The notes beneath the pieces are model-generated. The model saw only the letters and a list, made by a program, of their open reading frames with translations. It was not told where the DNA came from and did no database searches. A DNA stretch of 64,000 bases, taken from the IMG/VR virus record IMGVR_UViG_3300027754_000063, positions 25,277-89,276 of that record, one strand, 5' to 3'. The translations under genes were made by a program, and so were the position numbers. Every line of letters starts with the position of its first letter. The first letter of the stretch is position 1. This stretch comes from a virus. Positions 3,609-53,443 of the stretch are shown here, piece by piece.

Positions 3609-3633
3609 CCCAGAAATTTAATTGTGTTATAAT
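3605..3633 (+). promoter_or_regulatory. Host sigma70-type promoter with extended -10
   Basis: TTGACC-17 nt-TATAAT with TGn preceding the -10, upstream of AAGGAG RBS and ORF 3672. Confidence 0.75.
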
Positions 3634-3671
3634 AAAAAGGTGTCAAATAACAAAAGAATTAAGGAGTTAAA

Positions 3672-3971
3672 ATGAAGTACAATTTAGTAGAAAACTATCC
3701 GGTTGCAAGATTTTGGTATAAAGGAACTCACACGCACCCAGTTCGTAGAACTGTACTCGTTACAGAGTCTACAAAAACGCATTTGAGTGGATACGAACTT
3801 AGAGATGGAAATATTGTAAGACAGACAATAAACGCACCTGTAAAAACATACATAAGAAAGAAAATTGCAAAAGGAAGAAATTTGAGAGCAAGGCAAAAGA
3901 GCGTAATCAATCTTTCTAAAACTACTTTAGTGAGAAAAAGCCTCATGAGTCTCATAGAATCTGGAATTTAG
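3672..3971 (+). CDS. Hypothetical basic protein
   Basis: Good promoter and AAGGAG RBS; no recognised motif. Confidence 0.75.
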   Translation: MKYNLVENYPVARFWYKGTHTHPVRRTVLVTESTKTHLSGYELRDGNIVRQTINAPVKTYIRKKIAKGRNLRARQKSVINLSKTTLVRKSLMSLIESGI

Positions 3972-4011
3972 AAAATTTTTTACAAATTGTACACTATATT
4001 AAGATTAAGAA

Positions 4012-4108
4012 CGAACGTAATATCCGCTCCTACTGATTTTAGACAATCATAAGATTGCATTTAGTGGGAGAGGAAACTCACCCGCATTTAGCGTGTGTGT
4101 AGCTCAAC
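4012..4108. mobile_element. Orphan IS200/IS605-type terminal element / omegaRNA-like remnant
   Basis: Intergenic structured tract ending GAAACTCACCCGCATTTAGCGTGTGTGTAGCTCAAC, resembling the subterminal hairpin plus TCAA/TCAC end of IS200/IS605 elements; second hairpin CTCCTACTGA...TTAGTGGGAG. Confidence 0.5.
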
Positions 4109-4136
4109 GTCCACGAATTAGAAAAGGGTAAAAAAA

Positions 4137-4637
4137 ATGAATAATGTTGAAAAATGGACACTTGATGACGGAAGACGAGCTGAAAAAACAACCACAGAAA
4201 AACAAGTTAATGAGTTAGAGTTTGAGAGAGTTATAGAAATTAGTGTAGAAGAAGAGCGAACATTAAATTTGCAAAAAAGAATAACAGAAAAAACTCGACC
4301 ATTTGTTTATGAAAGAACAATAGAAACAATTAACGCAACTGGTGAAGTCGTTGACAAAGTGGTTGAGTCTATTGATCCTGAAGTTAACCTTAAATTAGTA
4401 CAATTGAATAATGATAGTTATGTTACAAAAAACGAAATGATTGAAACAATTGTAGAAGCTATAAAGTCTTCAAAAGATTTGCCTGTTAGTGCATGTCAAA
4501 TTAATACGAGAGGTGCCGCAGAAGAAATATCAAATTTAAAAGTAGTTGGCTATTCTGTTAAGGATATTGTTTTAACGCTTGTTATTGTATTACAGGTTGC
4601 ATTCTTAGCCTATTTGCTTGTTACTAAACCCAACTAA
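4137..4637 (+). CDS. Hypothetical protein with C-terminal transmembrane helix
   Basis: Hydrophobic tail IVLTLVIVLQVAFLAYLLV. Confidence 0.75.
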   Translation: MNNVEKWTLDDGRRAEKTTTEKQVNELEFERVIEISVEEERTLNLQKRITEKTRPFVYERTIETINATGEVVDKVVESIDPEVNLKLVQLNNDSYVTKNEMIETIVEAIKSSKDLPVSACQINTRGAAEEISNLKVVGYSVKDIVLTLVIVLQVAFLAYLLVTKPN

Positions 4638-4651
4638 AATAAGGAACCCAA

Positions 4652-5509
4652 ATGTCTTTTTACCAAAATGTATTTAATCAAGAGTTCAAAGGAAATTGGG
4701 TTCTGTCAGATAGACAATATTCTCTTACTTTTACGTGCCCTGCAAATAGAAACTCCTCAGAGTATCAGTATGCATATACAAACGGACCTTGGGACTTAAC
4801 AAATGGTAAAGATCATTTATTATTAAACTATGCATGGGATGTTGATTTTAAGAACTACGCAGTATTAGATGTAGATCTTCTACCAGCCGGAGCATTAGCT
4901 CCAGCTTTAGATACTGCTGTTACCGCATACGAAGTAGTAGCAATTTTAAATGCAAACGCAACATTTTCGGATATGTTCGTTGCAGAAACATCTGTTGATC
5001 GGTCTAATCCAAGCTTAATAACCGTTATAATAAAATCGAAAACTGGAAGAGCAAAGAAAGATATTAAGCTATGGATAAGCAATAGCGGGTCAGAAAGATC
5101 CATGAAATTCAATAAGTATGCAGGTGTTGCAGAACTACCAACTTATTTTGATAGGCACACAATCAGCAGTAGATTCAGTTTTTCTGATTCTGCTGGTGCT
5201 CTCATACTGCTTGACAACACGGATGGTGCGGAAGACGAAGACGTTATAACACTTGCGGGATTCGATCCAGCTAATCCTCTAGAAGATTGGGCGTTGCTTC
5301 GAGGAAGAGCATCTGGACTTTTTTCCTTTAAAAAGCAAACAGTAGACGGGGCAAGTAGGATTACGGAGATAATTGAGTATCCAGCAGGAGCAGCGGCTGG
5401 TGATTTTGCTAGAAAAACATTAATGACTTACACAGGTGATCAGACGGCTCCAGATGAGATTCTGCAAATTCCTTATGTATTAGCAGATGGTGATTTGATA
5501 GAGCCTTAA
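4652..5509 (+). CDS. Hypothetical protein, probably virion structural
   Basis: 285 aa, Ala/Thr/Gly/Asp-rich beta-type composition; AAGGA RBS. Confidence 0.7.
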   Translation: MSFYQNVFNQEFKGNWVLSDRQYSLTFTCPANRNSSEYQYAYTNGPWDLTNGKDHLLLNYAWDVDFKNYAVLDVDLLPAGALAPALDTAVTAYEVVAILNANATFSDMFVAETSVDRSNPSLITVIIKSKTGRAKKDIKLWISNSGSERSMKFNKYAGVAELPTYFDRHTISSRFSFSDSAGALILLDNTDGAEDEDVITLAGFDPANPLEDWALLRGRASGLFSFKKQTVDGASRITEIIEYPAGAAAGDFARKTLMTYTGDQTAPDEILQIPYVLADGDLIEP

Positions 5510-10603: not shown

Positions 10604-13138
10604 ATGCCCATATGGAGTGATTTTTTTAAACTGTTCACGTACGCCGGTGAGCAGGATCCTTTGTCAAAACAAAAGGATAACAATCAATTTCAAGGAGCTG
10701 GAATTGCACAACCGGATGCTATGGGCGTCGATTTCGCTGGAAGCGGTCCCAATTCGGGCACAGCCGGATTGCGTCAAACGAATGATATGATCGATACGAC
10801 CACTCTCACAAATCGGTCGATGAGATACAAAGAATACGAAAGACTAAGAAACGTACCAGAAATAGAAATGGCTATGACAGTGTTCTCTGATGAGGCATGT
10901 GTCGTTGGAGACACAAAAGTAGCTACTCCTTTTGGAATGATTAGTATAAAAGAACTAGCAGAGGAAAAAGGTAAAGAAAGATTCTTGGTTTATTGCTATG
11001 ATTTTGAAAGTAAAGACTACTCATTAGGATGGGCTTTTTCTCCAAGATTAGTAAAAGAAGAAAAAACACTAACACTTGTGCTAGACAATGGCACTACTTT
11101 AACATGCACCGAAGATCATAAAATATTGAAAAGAGATGGAACTTGGGCAGAAGCTGGCGAATTAAAACTATTTGAAGAGTTAATGCCCTTTTATAGAAAG
11201 CCAGCAAATTTTAGATTAACTAAAATAAGACAAAAACAATACCCAAGATTGTTTACTTTTTCTCATGGATGGATTCACGAAAGAAAATTTATAGACGATT
11301 GGAAATCAGGTAATAAAAAATCAGATTATAAAAGCGAAGTTGTAAGCAAAGCAATGAGAATGATCGGAGCAGGCATATCTGTTCGAAAAATAGTAGCAGA
11401 AATAAAAAAAGATTGGCTTACCATAGAAAGTTGGATAAAAGCACAAGGCTTTTCACACCAAGAAACAAAGAATTTATTCAAATTAGAAGATAGAAGAAAA
11501 ATTGTAGGAATACATCAAAATGAAGACCCGCAACCTGTTTATGATCTTTCTGTAGAAAATCACAAATGCTTTGCAACAGATAGCTTAATAATTCACAATT
11601 GCCAAAAAGATGAAACAGGAAATATCCTGAAAGTTGTTGCAAATAATGAAGAAGTTAAAAAAGAAATAGAATTTCTAATGCTTCATCGAAAAATGCTGAA
11701 CATAAACAGAAACGGATGGGGATGGTTTAAGAGCTTGTGTATATCAGGAGATTTATTTCTAGAAATAATTATCAATCCTGATAGCCCAAAAGATGGAATA
11801 TACAAAACTGTACCGCTACCGCCCGACACAATGTACAAAATAGAAACAGTTAAAGGAAAGGTAATAGAATACCAACAGTCAAAAGAAGGACCAGACTATC
11901 AGGCTATAGTAAGAGGATCAGCGGATGGATTCAATGACACAGAACTAAACAACACAACAGCAATACGATTTGCTACAAATCAAATCGTACATTTTAAAAT
12001 AGGAGATGATAGAAAAACATTTTATCCATACGGACAGTCTTTAGTAGAACCAGCAAGAGGTCCAGCACATAACCTCAGAATGCTAGAAGATGCTATGGTA
12101 ATTTATAGGCTCACCCGCGCCCCTGAGAGGCGTGTTTTTTACATAGATGTAGGGCAATTACCTCCATTCAAAGCAGAAGCTTTCCTAGAAAGAGTAAAAG
12201 ATCAATTCCGCAAAAGAAAAGTAACAAGCAATAGAGGAAATAGTGCAGGAGCTAATCAAGTAGACGAAAGATGGCAACCTCCTGCACAAGATGAAGATTA
12301 TTGGTTGCCAACGAGACCAAATAGCAACACTAGAATTGAAACTCTTCCAGGTGCTGAAAACTTAGGAGAAATTGACGATGCTATATATTTTAGAAATAAA
12401 TTACTTACTTCACTTAACTTTCCTAAAAATTATTTTAATAACGAAGATCCTACTGCAACAAGAATAACTTTGTCTTCGCAAGATGTAAAATTTGCACGAA
12501 TGATAGAAAGATTACAAAGCAATTTTGAAGACGGACTTTTAGCAATAGCTGAAACGCATTTACATCTAAGAGGTTTTCCTGAATCATCTTATCAAGATAT
12601 TAGAATAAAAATGACGCCACCATCCGATTGGAGAGAACTCTCTCGATCAGAAGTCATTACCGCTCGATACGGAAATGCAGCAAATCTAAAAAGCTCACTT
12701 CTTATGTCAGATTATGACATAATAAATAAAATACTAAAGTATGGGGAAAACGAAACAGAAGAAATGATTGCAAGATTAAAAATACAAAAACTTGAAGATC
12801 TTAAACTTCAAGTTATGGCTCAAAATCCACAGCTTCTAGGCGTGGGAATACCAGGACAAGAAGAATCTTCAACAGAACTAGGCACAGATCCAAGTGGACC
12901 GAATCCCATGATATCGCCAGAAGGACAACCAGAAGGACAACCCGAGGGACAACCCGAAGGACAACCTGATGAACAATCCGACGAACCACAAGGACCAGAA
13001 AAAGAGCAAACACCAGAACCAATTAATTTAGAAGAACCATCAAAAGACGATATAAAGAAATATGATCTAGAATTACAAGGATACGAAGCAGAACAAGACC
13101 TTGAAGATATAGATTATAGCGTCGGGGACAACGGATGA
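10604..13138 (+). CDS. gp20: Portal protein (T4 gp20-like) containing an intein
   Basis: LRMLEDAMVIYRLTRAPERRVFYIDVGQLP, EDYWLP and IETLPGAENLGEIDD are hallmark gp20 motifs; lies upstream of protease, scaffold and capsid genes. Confidence 0.96.
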   Translation: MPIWSDFFKLFTYAGEQDPLSKQKDNNQFQGAGIAQPDAMGVDFAGSGPNSGTAGLRQTNDMIDTTTLTNRSMRYKEYERLRNVPEIEMAMTVFSDEACVVGDTKVATPFGMISIKELAEEKGKERFLVYCYDFESKDYSLGWAFSPRLVKEEKTLTLVLDNGTTLTCTEDHKILKRDGTWAEAGELKLFEELMPFYRKPANFRLTKIRQKQYPRLFTFSHGWIHERKFIDDWKSGNKKSDYKSEVVSKAMRMIGAGISVRKIVAEIKKDWLTIESWIKAQGFSHQETKNLFKLEDRRKIVGIHQNEDPQPVYDLSVENHKCFATDSLIIHNCQKDETGNILKVVANNEEVKKEIEFLMLHRKMLNINRNGWGWFKSLCISGDLFLEIIINPDSPKDGIYKTVPLPPDTMYKIETVKGKVIEYQQSKEGPDYQAIVRGSADGFNDTELNNTTAIRFATNQIVHFKIGDDRKTFYPYGQSLVEPARGPAHNLRMLEDAMVIYRLTRAPERRVFYIDVGQLPPFKAEAFLERVKDQFRKRKVTSNRGNSAGANQVDERWQPPAQDEDYWLPTRPNSNTRIETLPGAENLGEIDDAIYFRNKLLTSLNFPKNYFNNEDPTATRITLSSQDVKFARMIERLQSNFEDGLLAIAETHLHLRGFPESSYQDIRIKMTPPSDWRELSRSEVITARYGNAANLKSSLLMSDYDIINKILKYGENETEEMIARLKIQKLEDLKLQVMAQNPQLLGVGIPGQEESSTELGTDPSGPNPMISPEGQPEGQPEGQPEGQPDEQSDEPQGPEKEQTPEPINLEEPSKDDIKKYDLELQGYEAEQDLEDIDYSVGDNG
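10898..11599 (+). mobile_element. Intein (234 aa) in the portal protein
   Basis: Block A CVVGDTKV, block B TCTEDHKIL, block F VYDLSV, block G IIHN followed by +1 Cys. Confidence 0.93.
12917..12964 (+). repeat. 12-nt tandem repeat x4 encoding PEGQ in the portal C-terminal tail
   Basis: ccagaaggacaa ccagaaggacaa cccgagggacaa cccgaaggacaa. Confidence 0.9.
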
Positions 13139-15768: not shown

Positions 15769-16449
15769 ATGGAACAAAAACAAACACTTTTCGTAGATTG
15801 CTGCTGCAATTCTGGCTTTACTCTGGACTTAAATGAGTCCACTGAAAAAGGCACAACCGTTTTTAAAGGTAAATTCCAAGAAGCAGAGGCTGTTAATAAA
15901 AACAAAAGAATATACCCATATGCTGTATTAGATGAAAATGTTAAAAAACTAATACCAATAATCGAAGCAAGAGGACTTGTAGGTGAATTAGACCACCCAG
16001 CAGATAGTATTATTCATTTTGAAAAATGTTCCCACATAATTACTAAGCTATGGTGGGAAGGTAATAGCCTCATGGGACAAGGAGAGATACTGAACACACC
16101 ACACGGTAGAATATTAAAAGGATTGCTAAATGATGGCGTTAGAATAGGAATCAGTAGCCGTGGGGTAGGGAATGGGAAAAATGATGATAATGGTATTTTA
16201 ATAATTGGAGAAAGTTATAAACTCATCACGTTTGATGCTGTAGCTGATCCAAGTACATATTCTGCTTTTCAAGAAAAAGTAGTAGGGAAAAAAGAAAATT
16301 ATGAAGCACATGCAAACAAAGATCTTCAATTAACAAAAAAAGCAGAAAAAATTGACTCGAGCTGCATACATAAAGTTAACAAAGAAGCACTCATTGCTTG
16401 CTTGGGCGGAATAATAGAACAAAAAACAGAAACATTAAAGCGAGGTTAG
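15769..16449 (+). CDS. gp21: Prohead maturation protease (T4 gp21-like)
   Basis: NKNKRIYP, GELDHP, ILNTPHG, GISSRGVG, FDAVADPS. Confidence 0.95.
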   Translation: MEQKQTLFVDCCCNSGFTLDLNESTEKGTTVFKGKFQEAEAVNKNKRIYPYAVLDENVKKLIPIIEARGLVGELDHPADSIIHFEKCSHIITKLWWEGNSLMGQGEILNTPHGRILKGLLNDGVRIGISSRGVGNGKNDDNGILIIGESYKLITFDAVADPSTYSAFQEKVVGKKENYEAHANKDLQLTKKAEKIDSSCIHKVNKEALIACLGGIIEQKTETLKRG

Positions 16450-16455
16450 ACTAAT

Positions 16456-17355
16456 ATGGAAAAGATTGTAGAAGCATTAAGAAAACTTTTGCCAGAAAAT
16501 GAAATCAATGAGGTTTCATCCGCCGTTCAACAAATGTTGGAACAAGCAAAGCTTGATCTAGAAACAGAATTCAACGAGAAACTTGAAGAAGCGTATGGCG
16601 ACCTATCCAGCGAAGTAGCCGAAGCAGAAAAAATTGCAGAAGCTGGATATGAAGAAGCATATGCAATTATTGCAGATCTTAGAAACAGATTAGAAATTCA
16701 AGGCGAAGAATATAAAGCCGCATTAGAAGAAGGATACGAAGAAGCATACGAAATGCTCACCCAAGAAAAGGGAAAGAATCAAACACTCGAAGTAGAAATG
16801 TACGAAGAGTATGACAAAAAGCTTTCCGAAATGAAAGAATATATCGTAGACAAAGTCGACCAGTTCCTACAGTTTAAAGGTCAAGAGATTTATGAACAAG
16901 CTAAACTTGAGATCGTAAATGATCCTCGTATGGCAGAACATAAAGTCGCTCTTAACAAAATTGTAGACATAACTGCAAACTACCTGTCTGACGATGACTT
17001 TGCTGCTGTATCTTCAAATAAAGTTGAAGAAGCAAATAAGAAGATAGAAGAAATGAAAGGACAGCTTCGAATCATGGAAGCCCGCAACATCAGAGTTTCA
17101 ACAGAAAATACCAAGCTCAATGAAACCGTACGACACGCTCAAGAAGTAATCAACGAAAGCCGAAAAGCTGTCGTGGAAAGCAAAAAGGAAGCTGTCGTTA
17201 ACGAACAGAAAGAAAGAACTGAAAAAGCAAAGAATGTAACGGGGAGAGGAAGAACAAGTGATGGTGAAGTCGTATCGGAATACGCATCACCCAATAATAA
17301 TAATTCTGGTGCAGATCAATTATTGATCCTATCAGGATTGAAACAAGCTCAATAA
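16456..17355 (+). CDS. gp22: Prohead scaffolding protein (T4 gp22-like)
   Basis: Acidic coiled coil between protease and major capsid genes; IVDKVDQFL motif. Confidence 0.8.
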   Translation: MEKIVEALRKLLPENEINEVSSAVQQMLEQAKLDLETEFNEKLEEAYGDLSSEVAEAEKIAEAGYEEAYAIIADLRNRLEIQGEEYKAALEEGYEEAYEMLTQEKGKNQTLEVEMYEEYDKKLSEMKEYIVDKVDQFLQFKGQEIYEQAKLEIVNDPRMAEHKVALNKIVDITANYLSDDDFAAVSSNKVEEANKKIEEMKGQLRIMEARNIRVSTENTKLNETVRHAQEVINESRKAVVESKKEAVVNEQKERTEKAKNVTGRGRTSDGEVVSEYASPNNNNSGADQLLILSGLKQAQ

Positions 17356-17384: not shown

Positions 17385-18824
17385 ATGAACGCAAATTCGC
17401 AATTTCTCAATGAAGCAAAAGAGTTAGAATCTCGCTGGGCGCAGACAGGTCTCCTCGAAGGCATTACAGACAGGTTCACTCGATCTGCTACAGCGGTTCT
17501 ACTCGAAAATCAAAGGCTTATGAACGAAGCCAGCACCGACACAGGTGACGTTGCTCAGTTCAAACGAATCAGTATACCACTCGTTCGTCGTATCTATCCA
17601 CAGCTTATCGCTAACAAAATTGTTAGCGTTCAGCCACTACTCGGACCAACAGGTCTAGTGTATTATCTCCGATTCCGATATGGTAGCAATAAGGGTGCAA
17701 CTCGAGGTGCTGACAAGAACGGTTTCCCAACTGATGATGCAAACAGCTTGATGCAGTTGGCAGACGGTACTGCCAATTTAGATATTTTCTATAGCAGCCA
17801 GTTCGTTCAGAATGAAGTATCCAATACGGATACAGGCACCGGAACCACAGTTGTGTACACCGGAACTGAACACACTCCAATCCTAGCAGGAACCATCACT
17901 GGTACTGTTTATGATAATGCTACTGCAATTCAGACGTTTGTTGTATCAGCGGCTGGCGTTTTTACATTTACTGATATTGGTAGTCCAAATCCTAAAGCTC
18001 AATCTGCTGGATCAAGCGTTAACACAACAACGGGCGAACTAACAGTTGTGTGGACCGGTGTTGCAGGAGATAATCATCTTGTATTCAGCTATGAATACAA
18101 TATGGAATGTAATCAGGATCTACCAGAAATCAACCTAGTTATTGAGTCAGAAGAAATTGCTGCAAAAACACGCAAGCTAAAAGCTGTGTGGAGCTATGAA
18201 GCTCAGCAAGATCTACGCTCACAGCACAATCTTGATGCTGAAGCTGAGTTGACTGCTGTTCTAGCTCAGGAAATTAACCTTGAAATCGACCGTGAAGTTC
18301 TAACCGATCTTCGTAACAATGCTGGTACCGTATCAGCTTGGGATTTCAATACCGCTCTTGGTGATACCATCAAAGAGAAGTATGAATCACTATATGTTAA
18401 GGTTGTCGAAATCAGCAACGTAATTCATCGTAAGACATTACGTGGTGGTGCCAATTGGCTCGTAACAAGCCCAGAAGTTGCCTCAATATTTGAGACGGCA
18501 ACCGCCGGCTTCGCTCCAGCCCCAAGTGAGACGTTCACAAGCTCACTCGGTGTTCAGTATGTTGGTACTGTCAATAACAGATGGAGACTCTACAAGGATC
18601 CACTATTCCCAAGCAATCAGGTATTGATGGGATATAAGGGCGACAGCTACATGGACAGCGGATATTTCTACTGCCCATACGTGCCACTCACCCAGACTCC
18701 AGTGGTTCTTGACCCAGAATCCTTCTGCCCACGCAAGGGAATCTTGACTCGTTACGGAAAAAAATTATTAAGGGAAGGGGCAAAATTCTACGCCAGATTA
18801 TCTATCGCTAATTTTGTGATATAG
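17385..18824 (+). CDS. gp23: Major capsid protein (T4 gp23-like)
   Basis: AVLLENQ, IPLVRR, VQPLLGPTG, RKLKAVWS.EAQQDL, EINLEIDRE, GYFYCPYVPL, ILTRYG. Confidence 0.98.
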   Translation: MNANSQFLNEAKELESRWAQTGLLEGITDRFTRSATAVLLENQRLMNEASTDTGDVAQFKRISIPLVRRIYPQLIANKIVSVQPLLGPTGLVYYLRFRYGSNKGATRGADKNGFPTDDANSLMQLADGTANLDIFYSSQFVQNEVSNTDTGTGTTVVYTGTEHTPILAGTITGTVYDNATAIQTFVVSAAGVFTFTDIGSPNPKAQSAGSSVNTTTGELTVVWTGVAGDNHLVFSYEYNMECNQDLPEINLVIESEEIAAKTRKLKAVWSYEAQQDLRSQHNLDAEAELTAVLAQEINLEIDREVLTDLRNNAGTVSAWDFNTALGDTIKEKYESLYVKVVEISNVIHRKTLRGGANWLVTSPEVASIFETATAGFAPAPSETFTSSLGVQYVGTVNNRWRLYKDPLFPSNQVLMGYKGDSYMDSGYFYCPYVPLTQTPVVLDPESFCPRKGILTRYGKKLLREGAKFYARLSIANFVI

Positions 18825-18937: not shown

Positions 18938-19759
18938 ATGCCTAGTGGTGGATCCAATAAACTTTCTTATGAAGATGTCAAAATTATTTTTGAACAAAAT
19001 GGACTTAAGTTATTGGAAAAAGACTATGTAAACAATAATACTCCTCTTGAGTGCATTTGTGTTTGTGGAAATAAAGTTAAACTACGTCTGTCTCATGTGA
19101 AAAAAGGCGAAAAATGTCAAAAATATTGTATGCCTAAAATTCTTTCTGATAAATTTAAAACTAAAGATGAAGAAATTAAAAAAGTATGTGATGAAAATGG
19201 TTGCAAACTTATAAAATCATGGATTCATAAAAAAAGAACTCGAATAAAATATATTTGTAAATGTGGAAATGATTGGGAAGCTTATCTTTGTAACTTTAGA
19301 CGTTGTCCCAACTGTAAAAAGTGTGGAAATGCAAAAGTATCAGGAGAGAATTGTTATATGTACGATCCTGATAGAGATGCTGTTAAATTAAGAAAAAGAT
19401 TCCGTAAAATGTGTGGTCAATATATTAAACGGTTTATGGATGCCACAGGACAATGTAAAACACGTCATACGCACGAATTATTAGGTTACACGCCACAGCA
19501 GTTGCAAGCACACATATTAAATCATCCTGACTATGAAGCTCTTAAAAATGAAGAGTGGCACGTTGACCACATTACGCCTATTCAAGCATTTTTAGATCAT
19601 GATATATTAGACTTAAAGATAATTAATGCTTTAGATAATTTGAGACCAATGAAAGGATTTGAAAACTTATCAAAGGCAGACGAATATTCTAAGGAAGAAT
19701 TTAAGAACAAATATAAAATAGATTTATTTTTTCAAGATAAACCATCCCTACTCAATTAA
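18938..19759 (+). CDS. HNH homing endonuclease with repeated zinc-ribbon N-terminus
   Basis: Two CxCGN...CxxC units; LLGYT, WHVDHITP, NALDNLRPM..FENLSK. Confidence 0.88.
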   Translation: MPSGGSNKLSYEDVKIIFEQNGLKLLEKDYVNNNTPLECICVCGNKVKLRLSHVKKGEKCQKYCMPKILSDKFKTKDEEIKKVCDENGCKLIKSWIHKKRTRIKYICKCGNDWEAYLCNFRRCPNCKKCGNAKVSGENCYMYDPDRDAVKLRKRFRKMCGQYIKRFMDATGQCKTRHTHELLGYTPQQLQAHILNHPDYEALKNEEWHVDHITPIQAFLDHDILDLKIINALDNLRPMKGFENLSKADEYSKEEFKNKYKIDLFFQDKPSLLN

Positions 19760-19808: not shown

Positions 19809-21263
19809 GTGATACTATATAACGTTATGATAAAAGACCCCACAGAGTTCGAATTTTCTTCTAAAAAGCTAAAAATCGACTGTTCATGTGATTATTGTGG
19901 ACTTCCATTTCAAAGAACTATATCTAATCTTGAAAGATCCCACAAACATATAAAAAAAGATTCTTGTGGCAAAAAAGAGTGTGTACAGAAGAAGAAAAAA
20001 GAAGTATTTAATTTGAAATATGGCTGTGATAATCCATTTCAATCACAAGAGATAAAACAGAAAATAGCAGATTCTAATCTGCAAAAATATGGTGTTGTTA
20101 ATCCTACACAAAATGAAGAAATAAGAAAAAAACAAAAGAGTACATGTTTAGAAAAATATGGAGTTGAGAATCCTTTTCAGTCACAAGAAATAAAGGACAA
20201 AATAAAGAGGCAGAATATTAATTTGTATGGTGTTGAGAATAGTTTTCAAAGAAAAGAAGTTCAAGAAAAACAAAGGAATACCATACAGAGAAACTATAAA
20301 GTTAGTCATTATTCAAAGACTCAGGAATGTAGAAGTAAAGTAGTCGCCACCAACATAGAAAAATATGGCTCACCTTTTCCAAATCATAAATATGGCAAAA
20401 CACAAGATGAAATAAAAGAATGGCTTAATAGTTTTGGGTTTAATTTTTCATCTGACTATGAAATCTTAGAAAATAAAGAAATAGACCTTTTAGATAAAGA
20501 CAAGAAGGTGGGAATAGAATATTGTGGCTTATATTGGCACAACGATACATCACCAGAGCCTAGAGATCGTACGTATCATATTGGCAAGTATAAAAATTGT
20601 CTTAAGAAGGATGTACAGCTTTTAACTATATTTGAAGATGAGTGGAAATCGAGACAAGATCAGTGTAAGTCTCATATTAAGTCTATTTTGGGAATATACA
20701 ATAATAAGGTTTTTGCTAGAAAGTGTAAGGTTGTAGAAATTTCAAAAGAAGAGGCGAGACGGTTTTTTGATTCTTATCATATACAGGGATCTAATAGTCT
20801 TGGATTGGTATTTTTTGGTTTATTTTTTCAAGATGAGTTGTGTGCTGTTATGAGTTTAGGAAGGCATACTAGAAAAACAGATATTTCTAAAAAAGAAATA
20901 ACATTAGATCGTCTTTGTTTCAAGGACGGTTTTAATGTTGTTGGTGGAGCAAGTAAGTTGTTCTGTCAGTGTTTAGAGTGGGCAAAAATCCATGGATATA
21001 AAAAAGTAATTAGCTTCAGTGATAACAGGTGGAGTTTAGGTCGTGTATATGAAAAAATGGGATTTATTTTAGACGAAGAATATGGTGCAGACTATAGTTA
21101 TGTAGAAATTAAAAATCCTAGAAAAAGACTGAGCAAGCAAAGTCAGAAGAAGTCAATTACTAATTGTCCTGCTGAATTAACTGAGCACACATGGGCGGTA
21201 CAGAGGGGCTTGGCAAGAATTTATGATTGTGGCAAGAAAAGGTGGACGTTTAATGTTGGATAG
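19809..21263 (+). CDS. Hef-like free-standing homing endonuclease
   Basis: Repeated KYGVENPFQS.EIK units, EIDL..GIEYCGLYWH nuclease core, IFEDEW, FARKC, GGASKL, IYDCG. Confidence 0.85.
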   Translation: MILYNVMIKDPTEFEFSSKKLKIDCSCDYCGLPFQRTISNLERSHKHIKKDSCGKKECVQKKKKEVFNLKYGCDNPFQSQEIKQKIADSNLQKYGVVNPTQNEEIRKKQKSTCLEKYGVENPFQSQEIKDKIKRQNINLYGVENSFQRKEVQEKQRNTIQRNYKVSHYSKTQECRSKVVATNIEKYGSPFPNHKYGKTQDEIKEWLNSFGFNFSSDYEILENKEIDLLDKDKKVGIEYCGLYWHNDTSPEPRDRTYHIGKYKNCLKKDVQLLTIFEDEWKSRQDQCKSHIKSILGIYNNKVFARKCKVVEISKEEARRFFDSYHIQGSNSLGLVFFGLFFQDELCAVMSLGRHTRKTDISKKEITLDRLCFKDGFNVVGGASKLFCQCLEWAKIHGYKKVISFSDNRWSLGRVYEKMGFILDEEYGADYSYVEIKNPRKRLSKQSQKKSITNCPAELTEHTWAVQRGLARIYDCGKKRWTFNVG

Positions 21264-46313: not shown

Positions 46314-46868
46314 TCATGCCTTTTTGAGATATGCCCTATCATATCTTAAAATTAGGTCGCACATAACTATGTCGCTACTCGCCATATCTAAATCTCCAAA
46401 GTCAATAGAGTTAGGCCACACATGATCGAAACCCCATTTTTCTATAACATTTCCACATCCATCATAAAGCTCTAATTCTGCATCATGCTTTTTGAAGTTT
46501 TCTCCTGATGTAGTAGGAACAACGTCTGCAAGGCAAGACGGAACATATGTGCCTTTTTCTGGATCATATAGTTTTTTTAACCATTCGAATATAGGATGTT
46601 CATTTTTTTTAAGGTCATATAATGTTAAGGCAACAGGTTTCCAATCGGGTTTTCCTGGATAATAAATAGTTTCTGTAAGATGCTGTGCTTCTATCTCTTT
46701 GAACGTAATAGTAGGTCTAGCTGATTTGTGTGGAGCTAAAGCATTAATCCCCTCAGCACTGATATCTTTTATTGTAAAAAGCCAACGAAATTTTCTTTTA
46801 AAACAGGTTGACTCATCATCTAGCCCAAGACCTTTAACTGCTCCGGGACCCATATCTTCTAATTTCAT
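46314..46868 (-). CDS. Tail tube protein-like paralogue (gp19 family)
   Basis: KRKFRW, ARP, PGKPDWKPV.LT.YD, LYDGCG, WP..IDFGDLD, LRYDRA. Confidence 0.88.
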   Translation of the reverse strand: MKLEDMGPGAVKGLGLDDESTCFKRKFRWLFTIKDISAEGINALAPHKSARPTITFKEIEAQHLTETIYYPGKPDWKPVALTLYDLKKNEHPIFEWLKKLYDPEKGTYVPSCLADVVPTTSGENFKKHDAELELYDGCGNVIEKWGFDHVWPNSIDFGDLDMASSDIVMCDLILRYDRAYLKKA

Positions 46869-46957: not shown

Positions 46958-47578
46958 TTAGTTGCAGCCAGCACAGCATGGTTCTACTGTTCCGTTGCAT
47001 CGTGGGGTGTATGTGACTTCACTGTAACGAAGAGTTAGTTCCAACGTTACTTCTTCCGAAGAAGAATAGTCTAATTCACCAAAATTCACTGCCTGTGGCC
47101 ATACGTGGTTTAGCTCCCAGCTTTCAAGAGATGTACCACAGCCGTCATAAAGATCAATATAAGCAGTAGCTGCATATCCCTGTCCGCCGCCGCCTCTTTG
47201 ACCTTTCTTAGAAGCTTGTGAATACGGAACCTGCTTGCCTGTGAAGTTAAAAGTCGTGGCAAGCCAACTGTAAAGAGCTGTCATGCCCTGTACGGTATCA
47301 GGACCAGCAATATCATAGAACGTGACCGTAATCGTTTCCCAGCTTGCTTTTCCTGGAATCCACATCTTGCTATTTAGAAAATTTATTTCAGTTTCTTCAA
47401 TAGTTAGATTTGGTCTTGAGGCAAGCTTAACATAGAAAGGTGCAATGCGTCCGCCTGAGCAATTCGTCTTTAGCTCAAACGTCCACCTATATTTCCTCTT
47501 GAACACTACATTGTCTCCACCAAGTTGATCCATACCCATGTCGGTCAATTTGGCACCCGGTGCAAAAGCATTAGGCAT
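46958..47578 (-). CDS. gp19: Tail tube protein (T4 gp19-like)
   Basis: Immediately downstream of sheath; PGKASWETITVTFYD, WPQAVNFGELDYS, LTLRY. Confidence 0.9.
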   Translation of the reverse strand: MPNAFAPGAKLTDMGMDQLGGDNVVFKRKYRWTFELKTNCSGGRIAPFYVKLASRPNLTIEETEINFLNSKMWIPGKASWETITVTFYDIAGPDTVQGMTALYSWLATTFNFTGKQVPYSQASKKGQRGGGGQGYAATAYIDLYDGCGTSLESWELNHVWPQAVNFGELDYSSSEEVTLELTLRYSEVTYTPRCNGTVEPCCAGCN

Positions 47579-47622: not shown

Positions 47623-50022
47623 TTAGAATATCGCATCGGCGTTTTCTGTAAAGCTTCCTGTTCTGTGTATTGAGAACTCAATAAACATGAATTCGACTGC
47701 ACGTGTTGGCTGCACGCCAATTTGTGCTCTAAATTCATTCCTGTCTATAACGTCTGGAGTATTTAGCTCCGCATCAGCCTTGACAAAGTAGTCTGTTAGT
47801 CCTCGTCCTCTTTTTACTTCTTCTAGTATGCCAACGCATATGGACACGAATGATTTTCGGAATATGTCGTCGTTTGGATCGAACAACAGTCCTCTGACAG
47901 CCACTCTAATTCTTTTTTCTAAGTAGAACATAAGCCGTCTAACGTTCACTCGGTCTAAAGCCGTAGGTCTACGCTGAAGTGTCTTTTGACCCCAAACTAA
48001 GAAGCCTTGTACGTCAACAAACTGCACAATAGGATTGATACAATTTCTGAATCCATACATCAAGTCTCTCTCGGCTAACGTGGGGCGATCATAAACATCC
48101 GTGATGCCAGGAACAATTCCACGATTTAAACCTGCTGGAGCAAACCAAGGCTTGCTAAGATAGTCACTTCTTGCAATTACAGCCAAGATTGAGCCGGATG
48201 GTGGAACCCAAACGTCTACGCGATTAAAGTTGTCTCTAATTTTCACCCAAGGCCAGTACATTGCACCAAAGTCTGAATCGAATCTGGTCAAGTTAAGTGG
48301 ATGGGAACCATTTTGCCACGCTACTATTTCTTTAACAGTTAATCCGAATGGAGGATCAACGATAGCCAAGCAATCCATTCGAACGTTTTGGCAGAAGTCT
48401 AGCATAGCGGTTACGACTGATGTACTAGCATGGCCAGGAACAGCGATCAAATCGATATCAATTTGTTCTGGCTCACTAAGTACATAGAGTCCGGTGCTTC
48501 CTACGGCAGATCCGATGAGCAGCTCATCTTGTAAATCTGGATCCGATGGAATACCGTCCGAACCACCAACAAGGTCATAAGTTCCAACAAGTGGCTGAGC
48601 TAAAACGTCTGTATTGTCTACAACTCGAATATAGTCAGACACTAAAGAAAGGTATGTTTCAACATAATATGAACTTTGATCATTCTTTGTTAGCATTCCC
48701 CATGCTTCAACTTGAACACCATTGTTATAAACTTCTAATATAAAGTGATTCTCACGAGCATCGTTTTTAACAACAACTTGCGTTTGATTTCCATCGATAC
48801 CAGCAGACTCAGCAGAAAGACTAAATGTAATTTCATCTGTTGTGTTTTCTGCTCCTGTTACAACACCAAAAGCTGCTGTACCTGCAACGTCATCGGATGC
48901 CCCCTCTGGGCTAAGTCCGTGACCAGTAAGTGTAGATAAACCAAAGAATTGTTCTCCAGTGCTTGATTTTCTAACTCTAATTCTAGCGTCCGCTCCAATG
49001 CTTAACGTTGAGAACACCAAAGAGTTTGCATCTTCTGAAGCTACCCAGCCACCAGGAAGTTCGCCGCCTTCTTCATATCTCAGTGCATTTATAGCAATCA
49101 CAATATCAGCAATAGCTGTAATCGGAGTGCCAGATAACTCTAACGCTGTGTTTAAATCTATTAGTTGTATAACACCATCAATTGTTACATTATCTGTTCC
49201 ATCTAATATTAAACTTAAATTCCAAGTTCCAGATGATGGTATTGTGTACACACCAGCCGATCCACCAGCAGGATATTTCGTAAGTGTTCCTGCTGCCTGA
49301 CCTGCTGTCATGCCAGTACCCAATCCAATAATTTGATATATATCATTTTGAACAGATACTATTTCAAGCGAAGAAGCTGGACCATAAGCCCATATTGCTC
49401 TGACGCCTATTTCACTCTCATCATCCGTCTCATCGAGAAGATAAAACTCTATGCCATCATTTTCTGCATCTAGTTGTAAATTCAATTCGTCTATAACTTC
49501 TTGTGATGTTTTGTCTGTTACACTCGATTCAACCATAAGAGTTTTTGGATTTAGTATGCCATTGAGCTTGTATCGAAAGAAGTATGCTTCTACCTCTATT
49601 GAGGCATCTACATAAGGATTTGGGTCAAAAGTATGTGAAGTACCAGTTATGGCGGATTCCAGTTTTGCTACGGTTCCGGCTGCTGGAACATCAACAGCAG
49701 CTATTTCTGCCTGCTCATCACTAACAGGATCTTCGTCGCCAACTCTCACAACAAAAAGTTCGTTTGCAACTAAAAGATACTGCTGTGCAGCATATATGAG
49801 GTACGGATCACCCACATCTGGGTGTGGATTACCGAATACAGTTGTAAGTTGTCTGGATGTATTGATTAGTATCGGAAGATTGAAAGGACCTTTAGATGCA
49901 AATCCAATCAAGCCAGCACGATGAAAACTTTGTTCGGCTGGTACAAAACTTAAATCTTTTTCTGCTATTCTTATGCTTGGGCTTATTGTATTGGAAGGTG
50001 GAAAACCTCTTAAAATCGCCAT
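47623..50022 (-). CDS. gp18: Contractile tail sheath protein (T4 gp18-like)
   Basis: SPSIRIAEKD, GFASKGP, YWPWV, WFAPAGLNRG, INPI, WGQKTL, DRVNVRRL, DRNEF, EFMFIEF. Confidence 0.96.
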   Translation of the reverse strand: MAILRGFPPSNTISPSIRIAEKDLSFVPAEQSFHRAGLIGFASKGPFNLPILINTSRQLTTVFGNPHPDVGDPYLIYAAQQYLLVANELFVVRVGDEDPVSDEQAEIAAVDVPAAGTVAKLESAITGTSHTFDPNPYVDASIEVEAYFFRYKLNGILNPKTLMVESSVTDKTSQEVIDELNLQLDAENDGIEFYLLDETDDESEIGVRAIWAYGPASSLEIVSVQNDIYQIIGLGTGMTAGQAAGTLTKYPAGGSAGVYTIPSSGTWNLSLILDGTDNVTIDGVIQLIDLNTALELSGTPITAIADIVIAINALRYEEGGELPGGWVASEDANSLVFSTLSIGADARIRVRKSSTGEQFFGLSTLTGHGLSPEGASDDVAGTAAFGVVTGAENTTDEITFSLSAESAGIDGNQTQVVVKNDARENHFILEVYNNGVQVEAWGMLTKNDQSSYYVETYLSLVSDYIRVVDNTDVLAQPLVGTYDLVGGSDGIPSDPDLQDELLIGSAVGSTGLYVLSEPEQIDIDLIAVPGHASTSVVTAMLDFCQNVRMDCLAIVDPPFGLTVKEIVAWQNGSHPLNLTRFDSDFGAMYWPWVKIRDNFNRVDVWVPPSGSILAVIARSDYLSKPWFAPAGLNRGIVPGITDVYDRPTLAERDLMYGFRNCINPIVQFVDVQGFLVWGQKTLQRRPTALDRVNVRRLMFYLEKRIRVAVRGLLFDPNDDIFRKSFVSICVGILEEVKRGRGLTDYFVKADAELNTPDVIDRNEFRAQIGVQPTRAVEFMFIEFSIHRTGSFTENADAIF

Positions 50023-50025
50023 AGT

Positions 50026-50244
50026 CTATTCTCCCTTGTTTACGTTTGTTGTGTTTCTTATGGAAATCAATCCATTTTTCTCTGCTCTATCTATGTATTC
50101 TGTTGTTCTTTCTTCATCCAGAAGAAAAATATTTTTTCCGGATCCAATTCCTGGTATGTTTAGCGTCGTAAAAGAGTGTGGTGCTCTTCTAGATTTTACA
50201 ACTAATTGTACTGGGAATTTATTTCTATTTCTTATTTCTAACAA
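50026..50244 (-). CDS. Small hypothetical protein in the tail operon
   Basis: Between the gp15-like gene and sheath; ends in the sheath RBS (AAGGGAG). Confidence 0.7.
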   Translation of the reverse strand: MLEIRNRNKFPVQLVVKSRRAPHSFTTLNIPGIGSGKNIFLLDEERTTEYIDRAEKNGLISIRNTTNVNKGE

Positions 50245-51221
50245 TCTAACTCCTCCACGGCTTCTTCTATTTGGGTAAGTACTTCGTTTATCTGACTTTC
50301 TTGTGTAACATTTATAACATCAACTCTTGCCTTAAGTACTGCTTTCTTTCTTGTTATTGGTTGTGATATATAGGACTTTGCCAACACATTAAATTCATAT
50401 TTAATTACTTTAATTGCACTATCTCCGGGCTCTTGGTCTATGTTGTTGGCAATGCTTTCTATTGTTACAATTATTTCCCAAGGTATTCCAGTTACTTTTA
50501 TATATGCAGCTAAACTAAATTTTGTTAAAATTTGTTCAATAATTTGATTCATATCTTCTTTGTACATTGTCCAAGCTGTAATTGTATATCCTATATTGAT
50601 AGGTATTCCCTTAGAAATGCCGAAAATCGTATCTCTTTGGTACTTTTCTTTTATAGCATATCCAGGCTTTCCATCGTCTGGGCGGCTAAAATAATTGAGA
50701 GCTTGATGATACGTATATCGATCCACATCATAGTCGATGCTGGTTTGTGTGATTGCCATCATAGGTAATTTTATTCGATCAACTACGAGAGTTTCATCTT
50801 TTCTAACATTATCTTGTATAATAGCTGCGACGGCTTTTTCAGGTGTTCCTAGAATAACTGGTATAGGCCATGCTTTTCCATCTTCGTCAATTACAACAAC
50901 ATCTCGAAACATATCAAGAATGGCTTCATCTGTTCCTCTTATTGATTTTGAGTATCTGTAGATTACTGTTCTGTCTGGATTTTCTAAGTCATTTACAATG
51001 TGCCCGCGCGTAATAGGATCACAGTCCACTTTAGAACCAAACCCTGTTTTTTTCATCGTTTGATCTTTTAGCCAGTTTAAAGTAGAGTCATTTGGTTCAC
51101 GAAGGCTATCGGACTTATCTGTAGAGCAATATGCTGCGGAGTCTAGATTCACATTTCCTTGTGGTCCTTTTTCGTTACACTCCACATAGTTTTTTTGATT
51201 ATGATTTGGGTTGCTTGTCAT
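50238..51221 (-). CDS. Tail completion/terminator protein (T4 gp15-like)
   Basis: IPVILGTPEK, IKLPMMAI, PINIGY, DMNQIIEQILTKF; upstream of sheath. Confidence 0.8.
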   Translation of the reverse strand: MTSNPNHNQKNYVECNEKGPQGNVNLDSAAYCSTDKSDSLREPNDSTLNWLKDQTMKKTGFGSKVDCDPITRGHIVNDLENPDRTVIYRYSKSIRGTDEAILDMFRDVVVIDEDGKAWPIPVILGTPEKAVAAIIQDNVRKDETLVVDRIKLPMMAITQTSIDYDVDRYTYHQALNYFSRPDDGKPGYAIKEKYQRDTIFGISKGIPINIGYTITAWTMYKEDMNQIIEQILTKFSLAAYIKVTGIPWEIIVTIESIANNIDQEPGDSAIKVIKYEFNVLAKSYISQPITRKKAVLKARVDVINVTQESQINEVLTQIEEAVEELDC

Positions 51222-51251
51222 TTTTTTCTCTCTACATATGTAGTAATATTT

Positions 51252-51839
51252 TTAAAAATCAAAAGACGGCTGATTTTGTGACGGCACAGATTTTAATATC
51301 CATCCACCAACTTTCTGTTCCTTATCTTGTACTTTCCACCATCTTTTGTCTCCATTCTTTGGATATAAAATAGATCCTTCTCCAAAACTAGAGTCTGTCC
51401 ACAGCTCCATAAATAAATCGTTTTGCGTAAGAATTACTGCTTCAAAAGAAGTTGGTTTTTCATATTGAATTGTTTTATAAACATCTCCGTAAAGATCATC
51501 CTTTTTCTCTCGAATGATAGCAGGAAGACAATAAATGAATGTTTTTTCTATTGATGGCTTTAATTCTTGTTCTTTTTTATTTACTTTTATATTTTCTTTT
51601 TTAAATTCATTCTCATTTATTTTTGATGAATCTAATTCATCCAAAAAAATAGCACCTTGATTTTTTTCTTGTAATTCAAAATCTGATCCCATTGGCATGA
51701 CCATTGTTCCATCTTCTTTGAATTCTGGTTTCCAAGTCATATTGTGGACAGAGAAGGCAGACCAAATATTTTGCTCTTTCATCGCAGGATTAGGTGCTAT
51801 AAGTTTATAAACCGATCCATCTTTGTGGTAGAGCGTCAT
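51252..51839 (-). CDS. Hypothetical protein, possible neck component
   Basis: MTLYHKDGSVYKL start resembles MALLNSDGTPYKL of 52736; DDLYGD motif. Confidence 0.65.
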   Translation of the reverse strand: MTLYHKDGSVYKLIAPNPAMKEQNIWSAFSVHNMTWKPEFKEDGTMVMPMGSDFELQEKNQGAIFLDELDSSKINENEFKKENIKVNKKEQELKPSIEKTFIYCLPAIIREKKDDLYGDVYKTIQYEKPTSFEAVILTQNDLFMELWTDSSFGEGSILYPKNGDKRWWKVQDKEQKVGGWILKSVPSQNQPSFDF

Positions 51840-51937
51840 GTGTCTTTTCGAAATTATTTAATTTTTTCCAAAAAATGTTGGGCTGAATATATATTAGAAG
51901 AAGACATAATAATTTAAAAAAATATACAAAGGGAAAT

Positions 51938-52732
51938 ATGGTTTTAGTTGTACCTGACAGTGCAGATGTTTTAATGTTAAAATTCATTTTAAACAACATT
52001 ACAACCACTGGATCTGCTCCTGTATCTGGTGGAGATAGAAGATTAAGATTGTTTACCAATGATATAATACCATATAAGTCTACTATATTGGGCGATCTCG
52101 TTGAAGCAAGCAACACAGGATACGCAGCTATACCTTTGGTTGGCACGAGTTGGGTGGTTTCCACAACAGATGCCCCTCATATTATATCATGTGGAAATCT
52201 ACAACGAACTAGCCATTTAGTTCAAAACGAGGTTTCTAATGTTGATGTTGGAGCGGTTGAACCATTACCAGCAACTTATTACTCTGTATATACTCATTCT
52301 GATAATATTCCAATTTTAGAAGGAACAATTAGCGGGACAGTTTACAGTGCATCTGTAGCCATACAAACTTTTGTTGTTTCTTGTGCTGGAGTCTTTACAT
52401 TCACAGACATTGGATCTCCAGCCGTAAAATGTAAAACTTCTGGATCAAGTGTAAACAATGTCACAGGAGTTATTACTTTGGCGTGGATTGGAATGCCAGC
52501 CGCTAATTATATCACGTTCAATTATGAATATGATGCGTGTCATAAGAAGACAACAGCTTCTTATTCTATTCAAACCTTTTCTATGACCCAAGCTGCCGAT
52601 GTATATGGTTATTATATAACTAATGTAGGCGGAACGCAACTTTTGTGGGCAGAGAGATTTCCGCATGCACCATTTATCATACCGAATTGGGGTGGAAATA
52701 TAACAGTCACATTAAACTTTACATTGGATTGA
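51938..52732 (+). CDS. Virion protein containing an inserted copy of the major-capsid insertion domain
   Basis: LRLFTND...VYGYY...LLWAERF frame interrupted by ~107 aa matching the capsid protein. Confidence 0.8.
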   Translation: MVLVVPDSADVLMLKFILNNITTTGSAPVSGGDRRLRLFTNDIIPYKSTILGDLVEASNTGYAAIPLVGTSWVVSTTDAPHIISCGNLQRTSHLVQNEVSNVDVGAVEPLPATYYSVYTHSDNIPILEGTISGTVYSASVAIQTFVVSCAGVFTFTDIGSPAVKCKTSGSSVNNVTGVITLAWIGMPAANYITFNYEYDACHKKTTASYSIQTFSMTQAADVYGYYITNVGGTQLLWAERFPHAPFIIPNWGGNITVTLNFTLD

Positions 52733-52735
52733 AAT

Positions 52736-53278
52736 ATGGCATTATTAAATTCTGATGGTACTCCATACAAACTTCAAGGTAGCGTACAGCAGTTTGATCC
52801 AAATAATCCAATGTTTGACCTTTTTAATCTGTGGGATCAAGAATCAATAAAAAGAGGTGGATCACCAATATTTTATTATGAAGTTATAATACGACCAGAT
52901 ATGATTGACCCGATATATTTGGAAGCAAGAAACAAGTTGTTTTCAAACAATCCGATACAGTTTTGGTGCAATTATGAGCCAATTTCTTCGCAAAATGTTT
53001 TAAATCAATTTGGAATAGATGCACCGGATGAAATGCGGTTTGAATTAAACTATAGGTCTGTTTTGAAAGGTCTGGGTCATCCTCCGAAAATAGGATCTAG
53101 ACTTTTTACTCCGCACCTTCAAGAGAATTGGGTTATTGTTCAAAGAAATTTAAGTGAATTTAAAATGTGGGGAGTTCTTAGAGTTGAATTAATCTGTCAA
53201 AGATTCCAAGAAGATGTTGTGACAGGGGATGGAAAAGTTACTCAGAAACAACCAGATCTAAAAATTAAAATAATATAA
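52736..53278 (+). CDS. Neck/head-closure protein (T4 gp14-like)
   Basis: ESIKRGG.PIFYY, DPIYLE, QFGID, PKIGSRL pattern. Confidence 0.7.
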   Translation: MALLNSDGTPYKLQGSVQQFDPNNPMFDLFNLWDQESIKRGGSPIFYYEVIIRPDMIDPIYLEARNKLFSNNPIQFWCNYEPISSQNVLNQFGIDAPDEMRFELNYRSVLKGLGHPPKIGSRLFTPHLQENWVIVQRNLSEFKMWGVLRVELICQRFQEDVVTGDGKVTQKQPDLKIKII

Positions 53279-53281
53279 ATA

Positions 53282-53443
53282 TTACAAAATTTCAATTTGA
53301 TATATTTCGTGATTCATATTAATTATTTTATGTACTTTTTTAAAAAAACATAATGGAATAGAAGGCTTCTTAAAAGATCCAATTGCTTTTGCTAAAAAAA
53401 CATGTGTTCTAGTGTCTCTTTTTTTTATCTTAAAAGCCTTCAT
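53282..53443 (-). CDS. Possible small basic protein
   Basis: 53-aa ORF with ATGA overlap to the upstream gene. Confidence 0.4.
   Translation of the reverse strand: MKAFKIKKRDTRTHVFLAKAIGSFKKPSIPLCFFKKVHKIINMNHEIYQIEIL

Follow-up and report, generated by a model that had tools for sequence, protein, structure and literature searches.

A capsid insertion domain copied into a loop of a putative whisker- or fibre-bead protein of a very large lake phage

We analyzed a 64,000-nucleotide stretch of viral DNA (the window), comprising positions 25,277 to 89,276 of the IMG/VR record IMGVR_UViG_3300027754_000063, and concentrated on one of its open reading frames, ORF264. The gene lies two genes from gp15, and its product consists of the two halves of a protein family of about 135 residues, between which stands a copy of the insertion (I) domain of gp23, the major capsid protein of the same phage. 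The genome record comprises 89,276 bases at a CheckV completeness of 18%, which indicates a very large phage, and one relative is the uncultured phage LR756511.1, of 595 kb. By profile matches, the window contains a T4-type structural module, in which the capsid gene and ORF264 are both located (Table 1).

The inserted segment is homologous to the capsid I-domain. In a single pairwise BLASTP comparison, ORF264 residues 91–203 aligned to capsid residues 137–244 with 60 of 114 positions identical (53%, E value 2e-29), which corresponds to nucleotides 52208–52546 and 17793–18116. These limits agree with the match between 52211–52531 and 17796–18098 reported in an initial reading of the DNA letters alone (the sequence-only reading). 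Exactly two copies of the domain are present in the 89,276-base record. Over 107 aligned codons the nucleotide identity is 61%, with 69%, 75% and 40% at the three codon positions, and the proportions of synonymous and nonsynonymous differences are 0.746 (pS, saturated) and 0.273 (pN); the synonymous divergence (dS) computes to ~4, a value that is unusable because the synonymous sites are saturated. The same codon is used for 24 of the 60 identical residues and a different codon for 36. Synonymous divergence combined with protein conservation, as noticed in the sequence-only reading, is thus borne out, and the substitution pattern indicates that the insert is under purifying selection. The GC content of the insert is 37.5%, compared to 38.0% for the ORF264 flanks and 43.2% for the capsid I-domain. 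Since the insert resembles its flanks in this respect and not the capsid I-domain, the copy is old as DNA and has been retained as protein.

The conserved core of the domain is complete in ORF264, which retains each of the 17 positions that are invariant or nearly so in the domain alignment (A3). The conserved linker motifs that join the domain to the capsid body (NLDIFY... on its N-terminal side and ...NQDLPE on its C-terminal side) are missing. Compared to the capsid I-domain, the copy carries an additional loop of 6 residues, and three of its cysteines are new. The four cysteines of ORF264 are all part of the inserted segment, with C85 and C201 located at the base and C149 and C165 inside, and C201 is aligned to the conserved capsid residue C242; disulfides among them would be a guess.

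It is the variable insertion of gp23 that was copied, as had been suggested. In the capsid alignment (A4), residues 140–238 are 55–65% identical to four relatives, compared to 87–92% for the rest of the protein. The capsid protein encoded at a relative's locus, L008 (positions 3537–4973), is 99% identical to the phage's own; all five differences lie in the I-domain (94.9% identity) and the other 380 residues are 100% identical.

Among 28 copies of the domain, the insert is most similar to the capsid domains of its own lineage, at 54% identity to the phage's own capsid and 55% to that of L008, against 31–50% for the other 25; it also matches the capsid proteins of other relatives at 39–54% identity. 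The maximum-likelihood tree places the insert as sister to the own and L008 capsid domains (support 97/87), on a branch of length 0.77 compared to ~0.13 on the capsid side. In the approximately unbiased (AU) test, a constraint that unites the capsid domains of the phage itself, L008, P0002 and P0003 to the exclusion of the insert lowers the log-likelihood by 3.9 units (p 0.087). Grouping all eight capsid domains apart from the non-capsid copies was rejected (p 0.015, for a group named post hoc from the tree), which implies that the non-capsid copies arise within the capsid diversity, and more than once.

We compared ORF264 to its homologues by a HMMER scan of 1.84 billion representative sequences. 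This gave 958 matches at E ≤ 0.001, and the 150 matches listed were classified together with two capsid proteins, making 152. The majority (126 of 152), typically of 130–140 residues, match both ORF264 flanks and lack the insert, 18 match the I-domain only, and seven match a single flank (two the N-terminal and five the C-terminal). A single entry carries both flanks and the insert, and this is ORF264's own cluster (98% identical), making the architecture unique among the proteins classified. The flanks had looked orphan in a word-index protein search, which returned the own cluster and two capsid proteins; the family emerged with the HMMER scan. Both halves of the family profile are found in order in ORF264, with the N-terminal half (aligned to 79 family members in the family alignment, A2) matching hidden Markov model (HMM) positions 5–77 at E 8.7e-24. 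In A2, no family residues are aligned over the insert, except for one or two at the turn, and the insert sits between two strands. A2 and A3 were kept separate, as a joint MAFFT alignment mispaired the family QTFTFT strand with QTFVVS...FTFT of the insert. The family is covered in part by phrog_10467, which ORF264 matches at 2.8e-07.

The same picture was obtained from the gene order of relatives. In relative G001 (245 kb), a family gene of 133 residues lies between homologues of ORF195 and ORF180, the two genes that border ORF264, beside gp15. Using the well-conserved ORF180 as an anchor, we gathered 80 loci from relatives. The family gene is found upstream on the same strand in 59 of these, as one uninterrupted profile match in each case (five of the 59 end at a contig edge), and no I-domain match was found in the flanks of any of the 80 loci. 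The 21 loci that lack the family gene include several with little or no upstream flank and some with a full 3 kb. Taken by sequence comparison, ORF264 is a true insertion of the I-domain into an unrelated, widespread family, absent from 126 of 127 proteins with both flanks and from 59 of 59 syntenic genes. The domain is therefore neither a generic part of all homologues nor equally distant from every capsid, the outcome that would have contradicted the sequence-only reading. Within its own genome record, ORF264 is the sole member of the family. The family profile returned no member in LR756511.1, an empty result that carries no weight with this tool. We also observed a second, more distant family paralogue in G001 (L014 1501–2115, minus strand, a 204-residue frame, E 1.4e-33), which lies well away from the neck genes, and a tandem duplication of the entire family domain in P0125.

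Three other family members, P0048, P0116 and P0140, carry unrelated inserts of 50–70 residues at the same hairpin (HMM positions 73–78), and that of P0048 matches phrog_20658 'head decoration' at 1.4e-11. Because unrelated inserts sit there, the family hairpin turn looks like a display site.

Table 1 Genes and features of the window, with positions in the 64,000-nucleotide stretch.
Feature	Position	Strand	Details
ORF264, whisker/fibre-bead family protein (putative) with inserted capsid domain	51938–52732	+	264 aa + stop
N-terminal half of family core, aa 1–76	51938–52165	+	conserved N-terminus MxLVVP, helix 7–17, first strands
Inserted segment, aa 77–204	52166–52549	+	in place of the 1–3 residue family hairpin turn
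I-domain core homologous to capsid, aa 91–203	52208–52546	+	BLASTP
C-terminal half of family core, aa 205–264	52550–52729	+	family HMM positions 68–135, E 4.5e-27; pLDDT 90–98
ORF180, conserved virion-module protein, possibly neck protein	52736–53278	+	start 4 bases past ORF264 stop
ORF195, divergent neighbour	51252–51839	-	conserved beside family gene in relative G001
Junction-spanning contigs X2 and X3	51617–53300 (X2); 51200–53046 (X3)		7 and 11 differing letters
Portal	10604–13138	+	844 aa; Pfam/PHROGs searches
Prohead protease	15769–16449		Pfam/PHROGs searches
Likely scaffold protein	16456–17355		by position and composition; no PHROGs family
Major capsid protein (gp23 family), source lineage of the insert	17385–18824	+	479 aa; Pfam PF07068 Gp23 4.4e-88; phrog_138 major head protein 7.1e-85
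Capsid insertion (I) domain, paralogue of the ORF264 insert	17793–18116	+	capsid aa 137–244
Tail tube paralogue 1	46314–46868	-	phrog_4542, 1.6e-26
Tail tube paralogue 2, adjoining paralogue 1	46958–47578	-	phrog_4542, 6.2e-30
Tail sheath	47623–50022		Pfam/PHROGs searches
gp15-like tail sheath stabiliser / tail terminator	50238–51221	-	Pfam PF16724 8.7e-18; phrog_227 3.1e-15

We used AlphaFold with the family alignment to explore the fold of ORF264. The flanks were predicted at a local distance difference test score (pLDDT) of 84–98 overall (84–98 also for the N-terminal half), forming a helix at residues 7–17 followed by a small sandwich, and the insert was poorly modelled. A VIA-align scan was run on this model with the low-confidence insert trimmed. 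The core was most similar to a neck chain of Sf14 (9c39_K, 108 residues; 105 residues aligned, root-mean-square deviation (rmsd) of 2.4, Z 9.9), followed by Fiber I of GP4 (8jou_a; 105 residues, rmsd of 3.6, Z 7.9) and by tail, baseplate and fibre parts of HFTV1, KP1, phi812 and 7-7-1 (Z 7.4–7.8). The predicted core has the features of the bead fold of whiskers and Fiber-1, namely an N-terminal helix, a small sheet and an incomplete beta sandwich in ~105–140 residues. In addition, the family profile matches a PDB entry termed 'Structural protein' (26la/44nx) at E 3.8e-4, and cyanophage homologues of the family are located among fibre genes, one of them annotated as 'tail fiber rope protein'.

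The proteins that share this fold form appendages at the phage neck. In the accessible text of the Sf14 study, the neck whiskers come in two sets, with gp30 and gp31 as their building blocks (PMC11821841). In Bas63, according to the accessible part of PMC12609058, dimers of the whisker protein gp5 wrap the 'rope' of the collar protein as beads on a string, the nearest structural relatives of gp5 are the Sf14 protein and GP4 Fiber-1, and a role of the whiskers in lipopolysaccharide binding has been proposed. The core of ORF264 resembles the beads of Bas63 gp5, Sf14 and gp80 of the podophage GP4 in its N-terminal helix, small beta sandwich and length of ~135 residues, and the gene is likewise near the tail terminator gp15. 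The strictly conserved N-terminus of the ORF264 family may fit the N-terminal strand exchange of the Bas63 dimers, as far as the accessible text describes it. An inserted domain in this loop, as found in ORF264, is not described for those proteins in the same accessible texts. From the model, ORF264 is probably a virion protein of the whisker- or fibre-bead type, situated at the neck.

The insert was modelled separately from the 19-row domain alignment, which gave an eight-strand sandwich with a pLDDT of 87.9. Its best structural match was the insertion region of the P1 capsid (9ukm_A 197–305, Z 7.2), then that of the S6 capsid (7x30_A 150–281, Z 6.4), both scores being in a range common for the tool, and then tailspike end domains and V-type immunoglobulin (Ig) domains. 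The model thus suggests an Ig-like sandwich that resembles the P1 and S6 capsid insertion domains. In the accessible text of PMC9546572, the I-domain of T4 sits on the neighbouring subunit within its own capsomer and is termed capsomer-stabilising and seen only in T4. The ORF264 copy shares with the T4-type gp23/gp24 I-domain a clear sequence homology to this phage's gp23 I-domain, but is located in a non-capsid protein and lacks the capsid linkers. Instead of lying inside an HK97-fold capsid protein on long linkers, it is flanked by the ~135-residue family. ORF264 is not a capsid protein, and the domain alone is common to both.

The I-domain is also found in other settings. Two to four tandem copies are present in the non-capsid proteins P0004, P0005, P0006 and P0009, and the sequence-only reading's proposal of a reused module is upheld by these arrays and by the 18 classified proteins that share the domain alone. 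Tandem copies are a habit of adhesion or spacer modules. P0004, of 3142 residues, holds four copies at residues 264–368, 492–599, 596–700 and 693–801. The same protein has a GH81 C-terminal domain (1.1e-28), DUF4214 and, as a weak match, an extracellular motif of planctomycetes, and its copies nest beside phage capsid domains in the tree (92/84). This may reflect transfer between phage and host and may hint at the host group. We also noted one to three copies each in P0005, P0023, P0006, P0009 and P0036/P0037. P0005 and P0023 share an N-terminal domain of unknown type, and in both each copy is preceded by the capsid linker motif. In P0009 and P0037 the I-domain or I-domains are followed by only the C-terminal half of gp23. 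Paralogues of the capsid protein or truncated gene calls may be seen here. Two weak I-domain-like stretches lie outside the capsid gene of LR756511.1, in a 123-residue frame (L005) and a 243-residue frame (L007), with HMM E values of 1.1e-07 and 4.3e-08 and genome-search E values of 0.0016 and 0.036.

Both carriers of the domain appear from sequence identities to evolve fast. Beyond the divergence of the capsid I-domain, the family flanks are 45–54% identical in relatives whose ORF180 is 79–89% identical.

Like the known Ig-like accessory domains (Hoc, tail-fibre and capsid), the domain is a predicted small beta sandwich carried by several kinds of virion protein, occurs in tandem arrays and evolves fast. 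The differences are that the donor can be named here, as the phage's own capsid protein, that the domain is an integral capsomer-locking part and not a terminal add-on, and that it entered a loop and not an end. A role in weak adhesion has been proposed for Ig-like domains on phage particles.

ORF180 has 393 homologues, of which the 120 listed are 63–100% identical, and its homologue lies downstream of the family gene in the loci of relatives, directly so in many. Its Atlas matches are a lead only, the neighbour clusters including T4_neck-protein in 13% and Phage_H_T_join_2 in 19% of members. The homologue of ORF195 is the frame at L013 439–1095, as judged by eye from the common N-terminal sequence; the Atlas matches of ORF195 (0.89, SH3b-like) fall below the trusted level. 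Searches of Pfam, PHROGs and PDB sequences returned no family for ORF180 or ORF195. A scan for promoters and terminators gave 12 promoter-like sites compared to 10.3 expected and no terminators, and the T4 late-promoter word TATAAATA occurs 10 times compared to 8.9 expected, with none preceding ORF264. No timing of expression can be read from these counts.

The portal profile spans residues 348–736 only, and the preceding extension of ~350 residues has weak helicase- or terminase-like matches. Directly 3' of the capsid gene is an endonuclease gene (18938–19759, plus strand, phrog_681/559, HNH-type), followed by a second (19809–21263, plus strand, phrog_3339 homing endonuclease, 5e-92). Mobile-element activity beside the capsid gene could bear on the copying of capsid DNA elsewhere.

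We propose, with fair confidence, that ORF264 is a virion protein of the bead family with a copy of its own capsid's I-domain in the hairpin turn, displayed on a whisker or fibre for binding. A copy of ~125 residues from the phage's own gp23 I-domain entered the beta-hairpin turn of a ~135-residue bead-type protein in the lineage of this lake phage. The copy held the core of the fold, shed the capsid linkers and drifted toward the local base composition, and purifying selection has maintained it since, in a gene that evolves several times faster than its neighbours. The sequences establish the homology, the point of insertion, the unique architecture, the lineage of the source, the selection and the reality of the junctions. 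The core would assemble near the neck as one of the beads of a whisker or fibre, with the insert pointing outward for binding. Head and whisker would then both bear this fast-evolving surface domain, whose most likely role would be weak adhesion to surfaces of the host or the environment. An exposed, interacting module is suggested because the hairpin takes unrelated inserts, the domain occurs in tandem elsewhere and both carriers evolve fast.

A number of points weigh against this proposal. The similarity of the core to whisker beads is at the level of the fold only, as the family profile reaches no Sf14 or GP4 chain by sequence at E values up to 10. ORF264 has no Pfam family at E up to 10, and family member P0018 matches PF23140 Gp80 at E 0.0097 and 16.7 bits, below the cut-off of 27. 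No gene for a rope or collar protein, such as would accompany the whisker and Fiber-1 beads, was identified in the window. Baseplate and tail-fibre parts score nearly as well as the neck chains, so the tail could be the site rather than the neck. For the insert model the structural matches are modest, the P1 capsid being the best, and Foldseek returned nothing at E ≤ 0.001, as was also the case for the whole ORF264 model. The AU test favours the own-capsid origin but not significantly, and does not reject an older one, preceding the divergence of the P0002/P0003 capsid lineage. One contig of a metatranscriptome library lies within the insert, which is not proof of transcription; equally, parts of the stretch uncovered in this library are no evidence of absence.

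We considered other explanations for the arrangement. Since the window is a metagenome-assembled viral contig, ORF264 could be an assembly chimera or a decaying pseudogene, a reading to which we give next to no credence. Contigs X2 and X3, which come from two lake metagenome runs of other studies, read seamlessly through the two junctions, which we count as refuting a chimera, and the two DNA copies, at 61% identity, are too unlike to mislead an assembler. The 90% cluster of ORF264 has 15 members, ten of which are full length and all different alleles, and the alleles are spread over dozens of contigs; ten full-length alleles, an intact frame and purifying selection all argue against a dead gene. 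The insert could also be a passive passenger or spacer, a tolerated bulge with no binding of its own that is harmless or adds bulk or length to the fibre. Ig-like domains often serve as spacers, the loop tolerates unrelated inserts, and the insert has no known ligand. We regard this as quite unlikely, as pN is far below pS over the aligned codons, none of the conserved fold positions has been lost, and the ten intact alleles vary at eight positions in the insert, no more than the ten in the flanks.

The sequence-only reading had offered two functions for the copied domain, a decoy for capsid-sensing defences or an adaptor that docks to the capsid lattice. Defences that sense capsid proteins, such as CapRel, exist, and a free copy of a capsid domain might soak up such a sensor; in favour of this are only the domain shared with the capsid and the fast evolution of the capsid I-domain and of ORF264, which could reflect an arms race. 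However, the domain is not a free-standing small protein but is embedded in the fold of a virion part, its gene sits amid neck and tail genes and is immediately followed by a conserved structural gene, and nothing was found that links ORF264 to a defence system. The decoy has no support and is very improbable. Docking is the main rival to a displayed binding module. In this case the I-domain copy would sit on a gp23 subunit or pair with capsid I-domains, fastening up-pointing whiskers to the capsomers that surround the portal and so tying head to tail. The accessible text of PMC12609058 reports that the up-facing whiskers of Bas63 contact the capsid and that GP4 Fiber-1 fibres point toward it. 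The copy also stems from the phage's own capsid lineage, and another family member has the 'head decoration'-like insert at the same loop. On the other hand, the canonical seat is filled by the I-domain of a neighbour in the same capsomer, as given in the accessible text of PMC9546572, and a free seat would not be expected in a finished shell. A conserved dock should restrain the copy, which is instead at 54% identity on a long branch, against 87–100% for the capsid outside the I-domain, and the tandem arrays in non-capsid proteins fit a general module better than a specific dock. Complex prediction of the capsid protein (A4) with the insert (A3) gave 0.00 in both runs, which were made without controls, and favours neither side on binding. 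The analysis does not establish the adaptor, which we consider possible but unlikely. Thus, the earlier interpretation stands in part: the insertion, the own-capsid source, the selection and the reused module are retained, and the docking adaptor and the decoy are not.

A displayed binding module may be part of a wider pattern. In this clade of very large freshwater phages, the I-domain might act as the fast-evolving outer binding surface of the particle, beyond its role as a capsomer lock, and might have left the capsid gene repeatedly, to settle in a neck whisker, in phage proteins with multiple copies and in a giant cellular GH81 protein. The whisker copy would then either share its outside ligand with the head or hold on to the I-domains of the head. 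We offer this broader reading tentatively, and doubt it more than we believe it. If true, head and neck would carry one co-evolving recognition module.

The event itself is a case of domain shuffling among virion proteins, which is a known kind; here, the donor can be named and the donor domain is unusual. A literature search on titles and the opening parts of abstracts returned no description of a whisker or fibre protein that has acquired a copy of a capsid I-domain. The capsid I-domain behaves here as a portable module, compared to its description, in the accessible text of PMC9546572, as a built-in capsomer lock unique to T4-like capsids. This suggests that the domain is able to move between proteins as a module. 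It also suggests an outward-facing role for the domain, since it is the fastest-evolving part of the capsid protein and behaves in this portable manner. ORF264 and its relatives provide a natural example of a small virion protein with a loop that accepts whole domains, which could serve phage display.

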